The notes under the pieces are model-generated. The model made no database searches. It was not told the origin of the DNA and saw only the letters and a list, made by a program, of their open reading frames with translations. A stretch of 64,000 nucleotides of DNA. Origin: Promethearchaeota archaeon. Lineage in GTDB: Archaea > Asgardarchaeota > Lokiarchaeia > Sigyniarchaeales > SOKP01. The translations under genes and the position numbers were made by a program. This document shows, piece after piece, positions 1,673 through 64,000 of this stretch. The stretch's first letter is position 1. Every line of letters begins with the position of its first letter. Where the stretch lies: NCBI GenBank assembly GCA_019058245.1, contig JAHPZJ010000028.1, forward strand, positions 1 through 64,000, written 5' to 3'.

Positions 1673-2533
1673 GTGGTAAAAATAGAATATATTAAATTAA
1701 ATAATGGCGTTGAAATGCCAATTCTTGGTTTTGGTGTTTATCAGATTGAAGATTTGACTCTGTGCGAACAATGTGTATATGACGCGATAATGGCAGGTTA
1801 TCGTCTAATTGATACAGCAACAGCATATAGGAACGAAGAAGCAGTTGGTTTGGGGATTGAACGCAGTGGAGTTCCCAGAGAAGAATTATTTATAACAACC
1901 AAACTTTGGATTCAAGATGCTGGATATGAAAGTACAAAATTAGCTTTTCAAAAATCTTTAAAAAGGTTGAAATTGGATTATTTAGATTTATATCTCATCC
2001 ATCAACCATTTGGTGATGTATATAGCTCTTGGCGAGCCATGGAGGAACTATACCTTGAAGGCAAAATAAAAGCAATCGGACTTAGCAATTTTCAGGCTGA
2101 TCGTCTAATTGATCTGATAATTCATAATAAAATAGTACCTGCAGTGAATCAAGTTGAAACAAATCCATTCAATCAGCAGATTGAAAGTGCCGAATTGATG
2201 AAAGAAAACAGTGTGCAAATAGAGTCCTGGGCTCCTTTTGCTGAAGGAAAAGATAATATATTTCAAAATGAGGTTCTAATGTCAATAGCTAAGAATTATA
2301 ATAAATCTGTTGCACAAGTGATTTTATGCTGGTTGACTCAAAGAAATGTAATTGTTATTCCGAAATCTGTTCATAAGGAGAGAATTATAGAAAACTTTAA
2401 TATTTTTGACTTTGAATTGAGTCAGGAGGATATGGAAAGAATAGCGAGTTTAGATACTAAAGAAAGCTGTTTCTTCTCCCATCGTGATCCTAAAATGGTA
2501 AAAATGCTTAGTACAGTTAAATTAGATATTTAG
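1673..2533 (+). CDS. Aldo/keto reductase, 2,5-diketo-D-gluconate reductase-like
   Basis: [35 protein letters not shown]; start is GTG 1673 or ATA 1682. Confidence 0.92.
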
Positions 2534-2577
2534 AAAGAAAATAATAGAATAAATAAAGTAAAGGTGAAAATAAGAAT

Positions 2578-3561
2578 ATGGAAAAAAGAAAATTAGGGAA
2601 AAATGGTCTTGAAGTTTCTGCACTTGGGTTAGGTTGCATGGGAATGAGTCATGGATATGGTACGGCCCCAGACAAAAAAGAAATGGTTAATTTGATTCAT
2701 GAAGCTGTTAAAAGTGGGGTTACTTTTTTTGATACCGCAGAAATATATGGTCCTTTTACCAATGAGGAATTAGTAGGTGAAGCTCTCGCTCCATATCGAG
2801 ATGATGTAATCATTGCAACCAAATTTGGTATAAAAAATTTTAATGGAAAACAAGTTCAAGATAGCAATCCTAAAGTTATAAGAACCTCTATAGAAGGTTC
2901 GCTTAAACGTCTTAAAACAGATTTTATTGACTTATACTATCAACATCGTGTCGATCCTAATGTACCTATTGAGGAAGTGGCTGAGACAATAAAGGATTTA
3001 ATGATGGAAGGGAAAGTTAGGCATTGGGGGCTTTCTGAAGCGGGAGTAAAGACTATCCGTCGCGCTCACAAGGTACTACCACTGACAGCAATTCAGAGTG
3101 AATATTCAATGTGGTGGAGGCGCCCTGAAGAAGAATTGCTTCCAACACTTGAAGAGCTTGGGATTGGATTCGTTCCGTTTAGCCCTTTGGGTAAAGGATT
3201 CCTTACTGGACGGTTCAATAAAGACTCTAAATTCGAAAAATCCGACTTCCGTAATATTGTGCCACGTTTTACTCCTGAAAATCTCGATGCAAATCAGGTT
3301 CTGGTTGATTTATTGAAAAAGATTGCTGCAGATAAGGATGTAACATCAGCTCAAATCGCATTAGCATGGTTGCTTGCTCAAAAACCATGGATTGTTCCAA
3401 TCCCAGGTACAAGAAAGTTAGAACGCCTTAAGGAGAATCTGGCTTCTGTTGAGATTAAACTGACACCAGAGGAATTACAGAATATTAATACCGCACTTGA
3501 AAAAATCGAAATAATGGGCGCTCGTTATCCGGAAGAATTGGAAAAAAGAACAGGAATATAA
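2578..3561 (+). CDS. Aldo/keto reductase (AKR13-like)
   Basis: [40 protein letters not shown]. Confidence 0.92.
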
Positions 3562-3630
3562 AATTTAAAGAATTTGTAAGATATACCAGATTTATAATTA
3601 GAGTTAGAGTTTCTTAAAGAAATAAGTCTG

Positions 3631-3828
3631 AAAGATAATCAAATCTCTGTCACACAGAAAGTAAAATTCAAGGATTATCAAATACACCCGAAAATCTTGG
3701 CTGGGTAAAATTATGGGATTTCAGACATAGAAGTTATAGAAGAGAATAGGGCAAAAAATGAATATATTTTCTTTTGTAAGCATAACTGGGTTGAAGAAAC
3801 AAAAGCACTTCTCGAAAAATTACACCTA
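3631..3828 (+). pseudogene. Internal fragment of a paralog of the HTH regulator at 8191-8838
   Basis: Translates KDNQISVTQKVKFKDYQIHPKILAG*NYGISDIEVIEEN...FFCKHNWVEETKALLEKL versus DEDQISVTQKVKFKDHKMHPKMLEGENYGISDVEVIEEN...FFCKYNWVKETKVLLEKL; in-frame TAA at 3706-3708; no start codon, no HTH part. Confidence 0.9.
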
Positions 3829-3971
3829 AGCATTATTTTGGAATTAGTGATGGAAACCTTTTTTCTTCATTAAACTCCCAAAATTAATCATTTTGACAGA
3901 ATTGTTAAATAGTCTCATATCTTAATTCTATTTGCAATATTTTTGCAAAAAAAATTTAAAAAAAATAGCGA

Positions 3972-61604: not shown

Positions 61605-61806
61605 CCTGAAATAAATTAAAAATTATAAATAAACTAGCAGCATTCAAATTTAATAGTTTTATGATTATTTAAAAAACTTTAAATAATTTTAAAGAAAGCT
61701 AGATTAATTCAATAAGAAAGAATATGCGAATAAAATAAATTTCCATTATAATCAGACTTATAGTGAGGAGATAATTATTCTTAATAAAAATCTAATGTGA
61801 ATAAAA

Positions 61807-62487
61807 TTGAAGCAATCATTTAAAATCTATATTGTTTTTGATAATAAATGCCACAAACCAGGATTTTTACCTGGTTTTGGATTTTCAGTGCTAATATATA
61901 ATTATTTCACAGAAAATTTTTCCTTATTTGATACAGGCGGAAGCGGAGATATTTTAATCCATAATATTAAAAAATTCAATGTTGATATTTCAGCTATAAA
62001 CAACATAATTATTTCCCACGCCCATTTAGATCATGCAGGTGGTTTAGCAAATATATTACATATTAATCCGAATATCAAGGTTTATGTCCCAAATGATGAG
62101 GAAAAAGGGTTTTCAGATGCATTTCCAAATAATCAAATCTATGGGTGTTCAGATATGACCGAAATTGAAAAAAATCTCTTTATTTCAGGACAAATCACAG
62201 GAAGTTTTATCCCAGAGCAATCAGTTTTTCTAAAAACTGAGGATAATGAATTTGTTGTATTAGTTGGTTGTGCACATCCTGGTCTAGAAAAATTCATCAT
62301 AAAAGCTCGGAATATTTCCAGAATTAGAGCAATAATAGGGGGATTTCATGGCTTTAAAGATTTTTCTTATTTAAAAGATATTGATTTTATAGGGGCTTGC
62401 CATTGTACACAGTATTACAATTCTATAAAAGAGACATATCCGAATCAATTTAAACGTATCTGTGTTGGAGATAATTATAGTTTTTAA
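61807..62487 (+). CDS. MBL-fold metallo-hydrolase (paralog of 25208-25933)
   Basis: FGFS, LFDTG, SHAHLDHAGG, GCAHPG, IGGFH, ACHCT. Confidence 0.88.
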   Translation: MKQSFKIYIVFDNKCHKPGFLPGFGFSVLIYNYFTENFSLFDTGGSGDILIHNIKKFNVDISAINNIIISHAHLDHAGGLANILHINPNIKVYVPNDEEKGFSDAFPNNQIYGCSDMTEIEKNLFISGQITGSFIPEQSVFLKTEDNEFVVLVGCAHPGLEKFIIKARNISRIRAIIGGFHGFKDFSYLKDIDFIGACHCTQYYNSIKETYPNQFKRICVGDNYSF

Positions 62488-62830
62488 AGGAGATAATTTA
62501 AATTAAAAATTATTCTTCTAATTTTTAAAAAGAATTTAGGAATAAAATCATCCATAAATATTTTAAATTTATAATAAAGATCAATTTTATGTGTCATTTT
62601 CATATGATTAAGGAATTTATTTTAAGATAGGTGTTTATATAGATGGATGAATGAAATATAGAAGGAAAAGGTTTTTATAGTTATTAATCTTGGGGTTTTA
62701 AATTATCTTCTTTCTTAGTTTTATTATAATTAGCTTATTTTTTAGAGTATTTTTAAGTAAATTAGATGTGACTAGAAAGTTTAAATATTATGAAAATGAT
62801 ATATTAATAAAGAAAAGAAGGTGAATAAAA

Positions 62831-63391
62831 ATAGAATTATTCCCTACTTTATTAATAGGATGGTTAAATGGTTGGATTTTTCAAGCGATATTCTTTATTT
62901 TATTTGGAATTTTTTTATTAACTTGTTCAAAAGACGTAATTTCACGCTTATATGATGAAGAAGGATGGACCAAATCGCAAAGGATATTAACAGCAATCGC
63001 GAAAATATGTGGTTTAGTTGTTCTTATATTATTTATTTTTACTCCTTTGAAAGTTGGTTCTATAGAGTTTATTATTGGAATTATTCTAATAGTTATTGGA
63101 ATAGTAGGATTTCTTGTTGCGCTAAATACTTTCAAAAATTCACCATTTAATAAACCAATTACTAGTGGATTATATAAAATATCCCGGAATCCCCAATTGG
63201 TAATGATGTATATTGTATCAATAGGAAATTGTTTAGCAATTGGTTCTTGGACTGCTTTAATTATTTTTGTTTTATCAATTATAGCAGGGCACTTCCGTAT
63301 TCTAGGAGAAGAAGAAAGACTTACAGAGCAATACGGTGAATCATATCTAGAATATAAGAAAAAAATTCCTCGATATTTTATATTTTTCTAA
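62831..63391 (+). CDS. ICMT/PEMT-family membrane methyltransferase; probable ATA start
   Basis: ITSGLYKISRNPQ, EEERL...YG..Y.EYKKKIPRY; frame is open 72 codons upstream of TTG 63047. Confidence 0.78.
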   Translation: MELFPTLLIGWLNGWIFQAIFFILFGIFLLTCSKDVISRLYDEEGWTKSQRILTAIAKICGLVVLILFIFTPLKVGSIEFIIGIILIVIGIVGFLVALNTFKNSPFNKPITSGLYKISRNPQLVMMYIVSIGNCLAIGSWTALIIFVLSIIAGHFRILGEEERLTEQYGESYLEYKKKIPRYFIFF

Positions 63392-63444
63392 ATAATACAG
63401 AAAATAGGTTAAATAGATAATGAAATTATAATTGGTGAAAAAAA

Positions 63445-64000
63445 ATTATCGAAATAAACCATATTAAAATATTTTTTATCATTTCTATATTGTTATTTAT
63501 TATTGGCTTTATTTGGCCTCTTATAGTAGTAAAAAAGAACGGAAATGATCCTCATGGTACTCATGAGGGATATTCTTTATTGACACAGTGTAGTGCGGTA
63601 TCGATATTCTTATGGTTAGGGCTGATTATTTTCTTTATATTTTTCAATAATTTAATTGAAAATCTCTTGCGTCTATATTTCTTGTTAAATGATGTGTTAA
63701 TTATAACTGGGATGATTATCATTTTAATTGGATTTTTATTAGAAATATTAGGGATTATAGCACTTGGGATAAACTTTAGGATTGAACTCCCTACAGATGA
63801 GACTGAACTTGTAACTACAGGTATTTATAGAATTATGAGAAATCCTATAGTTTTTGGGATATTTTTACTTGTTATTGGTTCCTTTCTAATAATTCCAACA
63901 ATAATTGTGTTATTAATAGCAATTTTTAATATATTTACTTTTAATTCAAAAGCTATTGATGAAGAAAAATTTTTACTTAGCAGATTTGGTGATGAATATA
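63445..64000 (+). CDS. ICMT/PEMT-family membrane methyltransferase (3'-truncated by window edge)
   Basis: ELVTTGIYRIMRNP...EEKFLLSRFGDEY; start is ATT 63445 after GGTGA, or TTG 63490. Confidence 0.78.
   Translation, partial: MIEINHIKIFFIISILLFIIGFIWPLIVVKKNGNDPHGTHEGYSLLTQCSAVSIFLWLGLIIFFIFFNNLIENLLRLYFLLNDVLIITGMIIILIGFLLEILGIIALGINFRIELPTDETELVTTGIYRIMRNPIVFGIFLLVIGSFLIIPTIIVLLIAIFNIFTFNSKAIDEEKFLLSRFGDEY

Follow-up and report, generated by a model that had tools for sequence, protein, structure and literature searches.

Start codons in a Lokiarchaeial window

Where does translation begin in a gene whose family-typical N-terminus lies in frame upstream of its first ATG, GTG, or TTG codon? 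This question is raised by a window of 64,000 nucleotides (contig C28:1–64000) from an uncultured Promethearchaeota, a Lokiarchaeia-type Asgard archaeon known from a draft metagenome-assembled genome (MAG) of 3.09 Mb in 31 contigs, with 29% G+C and a completeness of ~76%. Its uL16 protein has relatives in MAGs titled Promethearchaeota or Promethearchaeia, among them Loki_b32 and CP070831, a closed genome. An initial annotation of the window had marked seven sites at which ATA or ATT could serve as the start and had proposed that AUA and AUU initiation is routine in this lineage. Comparison with other genomes, which are labeled by G-numbers (G002, G005, G006, G008, etc., with G000 as the genome under study), indicates that AUA, AUU, and AUC are in all likelihood genuine start codons of intact, conserved genes in this genome and genus. 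Starts at ATA, ATT, or ATC (together ATH) are very probably found ~7 nucleotides (nt) behind GGTG in dozens of intact genes, ribosomal protein genes among them.

The three strongest sites and the genes that they would open are as follows.

9016–9019, plus strand: Shine-Dalgarno (SD) core GGTG of the 9027 gene, read in the sequence inside AAGGGTG
9027–11432, plus strand: tannase/esterase-like protein of 801 amino acids (aa) with a weak PKD match, predicted start ATA 9027
25939–25942, minus strand: SD core GGTG of the MBL-fold gene, read in the sequence as AAGGTGG on the minus strand
25208–25933, minus strand: MBL-fold metallo-hydrolase, 241 aa, predicted start ATA 25933
62820–62824, plus strand: SD GGTGA of the 62831 gene, within an AAGGTGA that is identical in G008 and G021; the TGA falls in the reading frame of the gene
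62831–63391, plus strand: PEMT/ICMT-like membrane methyltransferase, 186 aa, predicted start ATA 62831

All seven sites are as originally described, and these three have 63–72 codons upstream of the first canonical start, a bounding in-frame stop, and an ATA 5–7 nt after GGTG. For the 9027 gene, a 7-nt spacer separates GGTG from the ATA, the in-frame stop is a TAA (position 9000), and ATG 9216, 63 codons downstream, is the earliest canonical start. The in-frame ATT 9024 just before the ATA is a less likely alternative start. ATT-ATA follows AGGTG in the orthologs of G015, G008, G020, G002, G013, G024, and G021, with AGGTG or GGGTG kept at equal spacing in 7 same-genus orthologs, and the ortholog in the outgroup G026 has ATG.

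The MBL-fold gene has its GGTG at 25942–25939, a 5-nt spacer, and an in-frame TAA three codons upstream of the ATA. Its first canonical start, ATG 25735, lies 66 codons downstream and abuts the HxHxDH motif, and a start there would drop the MBL strands preceding that motif. Pfam matches fall within the upstream extensions, and that of Lactamase_B begins at residue 27 of the extended MBL protein. At the homologous codon, the two closest orthologs (G018 and G015) have ATT behind GAGGTG, which is present in orthologs with the same 5-nt spacing, and distant homologs have ATG. The expected truncation by gene callers is apparent here, as the protein-database product, for which no Pfam match is recorded, runs from ATG 25735 and measures 175 aa against 239–245 aa in the family. 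The nearest relatives of the protein (63–75% identity) have also been called short, at 175–229 aa.

The 62831 gene has GGTGA, a 7-nt spacer, and the ATA, with its first canonical start, TTG 63047, 72 codons downstream. The homologous codon is ATA in G008 and G021, and ATG stands at exactly this position in G013, G005, and G018. Differences per codon position amount to 40/39/125 in the 63-codon extension of the 9027 gene and to 43/44/102 in the 72-codon extension of the 62831 gene. Because divergence is concentrated at third positions, both extensions are coding and under purifying selection.

Orthologs also uphold two of the four sites that were first considered weaker.

63434–63438, plus strand: SD GGTGA of the second PEMT-like gene, kept in G024, G008, G013, G005, and G021
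63445–64000, plus strand: second PEMT/ICMT-like gene, predicted start ATT 63445, 7 nt after GGTGA; it extends past the window and encodes 203 aa in the genome
42088–42094, plus strand: SD GGAGGTG of the 42101 gene, inside the end of the upstream gene; GAGGTG is kept in 11 same-genus orthologs
42101–42559, plus strand: small membrane protein, DUF5518-like (weak match), predicted start ATT 42101, 6 nt after GGTG

The codon homologous to 63445 is ATT in G024, ATA in G008, G013, and G005, and ATG in G012 and G035; it is also ATA in G021 and G018, both of which have an adjacent in-frame ATG. A comparison with the neighboring paralog of G008 was discarded, as the N-termini were not alignable, and the true orthologs were found instead. 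Across the two PEMT families, ATH starts have a perfect GGTGA in 9/9 cases, and ATG at the homologous codon mostly has a degenerate SD (GGTAA, AGTGA, GTTGA, GGAGAA); this pattern, seen among related genomes and given no statistical test, suggests that a perfect SD goes with ATH. At the 42101 site, open reading frame (ORF) finders take as the start an in-frame GTG (42092) that lies within GGAGGTG itself. Among 12 same-genus genomes, the 42101 codon is ATT in 6, ATG in 3, TTG in 2, and GTG in 1, always 6 nt after GAGGTG, and the flanking codons remain sense codons. Since start-type codons alternate only at this position in the 12 genomes, the predicted start is 42101 and not the GTG within the SD, and the turnover of the codon reads as a start-codon signature.

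Five sites (9027, 25933, 62831, 63445, and 42101) are therefore supported by orthologs, as congeners either keep ATA or ATT behind a conserved GGTG or swap that codon for ATG, TTG, or GTG. The remaining two, 18380 and 1682, each have a GTG three codons upstream and are undecided.

Genome-wide enrichment behind the Shine-Dalgarno sequence

The 3′ end of 16S rRNA in two closed congeners reads ...GGATCACCTCC, which is complementary to GGAGGTGATC. For a genome-wide test, all stop-to-stop ORFs of ≥100 codons were collected, and each open frame was examined over its first 25 codons. An in-frame codon was eligible if none of the 10 codons following it was a canonical start, and its distance to an upstream GGTG was tabulated. 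Exactly 7 nt after GGTG, the eligible codons included 32/2218 ATH codons vs. 13/13608 other sense codons (odds ratio 15, Fisher p = 4.5e-18). By codon, there were 16 ATA, 11 ATT, and 5 ATC, along with 5 CTG or ACG. Canonical first starts at the same distance number 31 (ATG 17, GTG 5, TTG 9), and at the 7-nt GGTG spacing ATH and canonical starts are thus nearly equal in number (32 vs. 31). When any 5-mer of GGAGGTGATC was accepted as the SD, 66 canonical starts vs. 42 ATH, CTG, or ACG starts were found at 7 nt. With these 5-mers, the ATH excess is small at 6 nt and absent at 5 nt and 8 nt, while ATG starts spread over 5–10 nt. At 4 and 10 nt, other codons had raised counts, which were set aside as due to codons flanking the 7-nt starts. 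Thus, at a defined spacing, there is a strong SD whose sequence complements the 16S 3′ end as read in the two congeners.

The excess corresponds to ~43 genes, which is a floor of ~1.3% of ORFs of ≥100 codons because only perfect SDs were counted. ACG stands 7 nt after an SD in 3/62 eligible positions and CTG in 3/76, far above background. The AUA/AUU proposal, which is borne out by the conservation and turnover of the codon among orthologs and by this excess of ATH behind GGTG, can be refined in two respects: ATC is also used, as is CTG, more rarely than ATH, and probably ACG; and the spacing is sharply 7 nt (6–7) after GGTG. The unfiltered count also gives 5 occurrences of TGT at 7 nt.

A 400-kb sample of G006, a closed genome of the same genus, gave the same enrichment, with ATH at 5/298 vs. 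other codons at 6/2008 at 7 nt. A sample of equal length from G032, which belongs to another family, gave 2/225 vs. 2/1459, few cases in all. One of the two ATH cases in G032 resembles a genuine FtsX-type N-terminus.

Near-cognate starts in conserved and essential genes

Elsewhere in the genome, ATH starts are predicted for the following genes.

L21e: ATA start; Pfam model positions 3–97 match residues 3–94
uL16/L10e: ATC start
uL15: ATT start
aIF5A: ATT start
IleRS: ATT start
DUF134: ATA start
Ras-like GTPase: ATA start; the P-loop precedes the first canonical start, which is 99 codons downstream

These seven proteins match their Pfam models from residue 1–13, and the N-termini of L21e and uL16 align from residue 1–3 of the models. 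The start of L21e in this genome and 22 congeners is ATA in 11, ATC in 5, ATT in 4, TTG in 2, CTG in 1, and ATG in none, in almost every case with AGGTG 7 nt upstream. In seven genomes from other families of the order, the start is ATG or TTG. uL16 starts at ATC or ATA in 16/81 Promethearchaeota species. A near-cognate codon is thus found at the family N-terminal Met, with no canonical start intervening after the upstream stop, and the non-canonical start is conserved between species for L21e (22 congeners), for uL16, and for the window genes.

An ATG turned into ATA or ATT, by mutation in a start-loss pseudogene or by an assembly error, would produce sites of similar appearance, as every site is one third-position base from ATG and the genome is a draft MAG. 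This explanation is scarcely credible, however, given that the same non-ATG codons recur in independent assemblies (22 congeners for L21e, 7 for the 9027 gene) and that the essential single-copy genes for L21e, uL16, uL15, aIF5A, and IleRS are affected. Relatives do not all have ATG but keep ATA, ATT, or ATC or have ATG, TTG, GTG, or CTG at exactly that codon. Neither relaxed constraint, nor sporadic spread, nor absence from essential genes was found; the 9027 and 62831 extensions are under purifying selection, and the enrichment is confined to one spacing behind GGTG.

It is also very improbable that translation begins at the first downstream ATG, GTG, or TTG, with the in-frame stretch upstream serving as an untranslated leader. 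Gene callers predict exactly this, as in the 175-aa product of the 25933 gene, and in the 1682 and 18380 genes a canonical GTG precedes the ATA in frame by three codons. Yet downstream starts would delete the MBL strands before HxHxDH, the P-loop of the Ras-like GTPase, and the N-termini of L21e and uL16. The extensions are moreover conserved as protein, with third-position bias, and in some orthologs an ATG takes the very place of the ATH codon.

In mitochondria, AUA is decoded as Met, and AUA, AUU, and AUC all serve as start codons. A code change of this type, in which AUA or all AUH codons are read as Met throughout, would have that precedent but can be given almost no weight. When uL16 was compared with 80 species, internal ATA, ATT, and ATC codons aligned with Ile or Val, internal ATA in particular with Ile (227) or Val (84), whereas internal ATG columns held Met in 240/240 cases. 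uL16 shows no internal exchange between ATA and ATG, and ATH and ATG are exchanged only at the start position. ATA also ranks among the commonest codons of this genome, whose G+C content is 29%.

Initiation machinery and proposed mechanism

With AUH codons read as starts and internal AUA as Ile, initiation may be explained by the SD. The core GGUG(A), from GGAGGUGAUC, would pair with the 16S 3′ end ...GGAUCACCUCC, and the resulting duplex would measure off the distance, so that the codon 7 nt (6–7) downstream comes to lie in the P site. There, the ordinary Met-tRNAi (anticodon CAU) would accept AUH despite the third-position mismatch and, more rarely, CUG or ACG. The weak codon-anticodon pairing presumably cannot offset strain, so that exact spacing would be required, whereas ATG tolerates 5–10 nt. 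The N-terminal Met, the efficiency of these starts, and a feedback through aIF1 are points that we only infer. The conserved SD at fixed spacing argues against leaderless initiation.

In the initiator tRNA of the congeners G023 and G024, the anticodon is CAU, the pair A1:U72 is present, and the anticodon stem contains three G:C pairs. Its gene in G023 (C1 ~903,340–903,460, minus strand) has an intron of ~31 nt after position 37. The gene in G024 (C3) combines an intron at that position with a second insertion, in the T-arm region, and in the gene of G032 the D-arm region holds an insertion. None of these three interrupted genes is called by ARAGORN, and such interruption probably explains why few tRNAs are detected in these genomes. 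ARAGORN also calls a tRNA-SeC (anticodon TCA) in G023 (C1 ~739,260), of the same genus, as well as doubtful tRNA-SeC and tRNA-Pyl genes with very long “introns” in the genome under study.

The modification f5C (5-formylcytidine) at C34 widens decoding in mitochondrial tRNA-Met. It is conceivable, though unlikely, that something other than near-cognate pairing by a standard Met-tRNAi is at work here, such as a second initiator-like tRNA, a modification of C34, or initiation with Ile. AUA, AUU, and AUC share a third-position mismatch that a modified C34 could read, and the tRNA set is hard to survey, with many genes bearing introns and 17 found in this assembly. The initiator tRNA genes of congeners are nevertheless standard, and a search of this genome gave no second anticodon stem-loop of the initiator type. 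CUG and ACG at 7 nt, with mismatches at the first and second positions, fit a general near-cognate tolerance better than an altered wobble.

The factor expected to reject near-cognate starts is itself affected. In 20/20 readable congeners, the aIF1 gene (PF01253) opens with an ATT that follows a stop by one to two codons; in the closed genome G006 (C1:1383631–1386846), the sequence for the N-terminal part is a run of N. Genomes of other families have TTG, ATG, or GTG, and G030 has ATA. A fidelity factor whose own gene starts at a near-cognate codon is thus found among the congeners. aIF1 in Sulfolobus rejects AUU, and bacterial IF3 is autoregulated through its own AUU start (PMC4705826). By analogy, the AUU start of aIF1 hints at an infC-like feedback loop that would hold initiation stringency low. 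More tentatively still, and with the odds rather against it, low stringency may exist by design, with the genes of the SD-N7-AUH type, including those for ribosomal proteins, tracking aIF1 activity in a loop independent of bacterial IF3. If true, this would be an aIF1-based circuit for global translational control in close prokaryotic kin of eukaryotes, one that foreshadows eIF1 autoregulation and eukaryotic near-cognate initiation.

Several points weigh against near-cognate initiation guided by the SD, or against parts of it. The support comes from comparison of DNA sequences, with the start sites predicted, and congeners and related genomes are non-independent samples. ATH starts were found via their SD, which makes their true frequency and their SD dependence partly circular. 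SD match length in the exact-GGTG subset is alike for ATG (5.6) and ATH (5.5) starts. The idea that a stronger SD compensates for ATH was accordingly rejected for this subset and is seen only in the ortholog comparisons of the two PEMT families. L21e in G019 and G004 starts at ATC without a clean GGTG upstream (cacgagctggttgact), so a perfect SD is not behind every ATH start, and the ATT of aIF1 lies ~10 nt, not 7 nt, behind a split SD (GGTTGTGAT). No initiator tRNA was found in the organism's own 76%-complete assembly by ARAGORN and Rfam searches, which gave 17–19 tRNAs, nor were the SUI1/aIF1 gene and the 16S 3′ end found there, and the points on initiator tRNA, 16S, and aIF1 are drawn from congeners.

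Relation to known systems

Archaeal initiation is usually described as occurring at AUG, GUG, and UUG. NCBI translation table 11 lists ATT, ATC, ATA, and CTG as rare initiators beside ATG, GTG, and TTG, and common gene finders accept the latter three only. The codons used here are exactly the rare initiators that this table permits, although the table records their occurrence somewhere in prokaryotes and not frequent, lineage-wide use. The literature searched gave no report of frequent, conserved ATA, ATT, or ATC starts in archaea, whether Asgard or not, and a 2026 review describes SD sequences as rare in Lokiarchaea (PMC12993045).

The closest parallels are the SD-led AUU and AUA starts of bacteria, namely infC (encoding IF3) and pcnB in E. 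coli and infC, cvfC1, ccpN, and citZ in S. aureus (PMC4705826; PMC13009471). The S. aureus AUA and AUU starts behind extended SDs have been mapped and give ~10–30% of AUG reporter expression (PMC13009471). As with infC, pcnB, and ccpN, the near-cognate codon here stands at the true N-terminus behind a strong or extended SD and is conserved across species, and a fidelity-factor gene has such a start (infC there, aIF1 here in congeners). The bacterial cases are, however, a handful of regulatory exceptions per genome, whereas at least ~40 genes, including ribosomal protein genes, are predicted here. The host is also an archaeon with eukaryote-type aIF1, aIF1A, and aIF2 and without IF3, and unlike in bacteria, the codon drifts freely among ATA, ATT, ATC, TTG, and CTG between species.

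Eukaryotes offer a second parallel, as eIF1 autoregulates via the poor-context AUG of its own mRNA (PMC4705826). Homologous factors, eIF1 and aIF1, police the pairing of Met-tRNAi in the two systems, the factor's own start is weak in both, and CUG, ACG, and AUU are usable. The codon is selected in eukaryotes by cap-dependent scanning and Kozak context, whereas here an SD at fixed spacing would pick it. Furthermore, eukaryotic near-cognate starts mostly open upstream ORFs or N-terminal extensions, while here they would be the sole start of the main protein. Mitochondria share the same set of AUH start codons but read internal AUA as Met and use a modified tRNA-Met, whereas here internal AUA is Ile and initiation would depend on an SD.

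The consequences would first concern annotation. Gene finders limited to ATG, GTG, and TTG would cut short or overlook a few percent of the proteins in Lokiarchaeia, at a cost of 27% of its length for the 25933 MBL enzyme and of the P-loop for the Ras-like GTPase. Affected Asgard proteins would include “eukaryotic signature” proteins, ribosomal proteins, and initiation factors, and the errors would pass into comparative and structural proteome studies. The lineage would also provide a natural system for asking how aIF1, aIF1A, and aIF2 set start-codon stringency and whether autoregulation of a fidelity factor predates eukaryotes.

Remaining sites and neighboring genes

The two undecided genes of the window are as follows.

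18213–18380, minus strand: four-cysteine zinc-ribbon protein of 55 aa, candidate start ATA 18380, 6 nt after AAGGTG (18388–18393 in plus-strand coordinates)
1673–2533, plus strand: aldo/keto reductase, start at GTG 1673 or ATA 1682, the GTG being in frame three codons upstream

For the zinc-ribbon gene, the upstream in-frame GTG lies inside the SD. Starting at the first ATG would remove the first CxxC, and the single ortholog (G024) has the same AAGGTG-TTATTT-ATA; whether the ATA or the GTG in the SD is the start is undecided. ATA 1682 has only a poor SD (GGATGTGG) with no clean GGTG, an ortholog search gave no relative above 43% identity, and the choice between GTG 1673 and ATA 1682 is likewise undecided.

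A paralog of the 25933 MBL-fold gene (61807–62487) precedes the tandem PEMT/ICMT-like genes (62831–63391 and 63445–64000+), and this arrangement of three genes recurs in G008, G021, G013, G018, and G005. The window also holds three paralogs of ~270 aa (15447–16259, 30798–31607, and 32114–32923) with near-identical N-termini, MP[IF]FDNEG[IV]KIYYE[IV]EGEG, two of which are of equal length and lie 500 nt apart.

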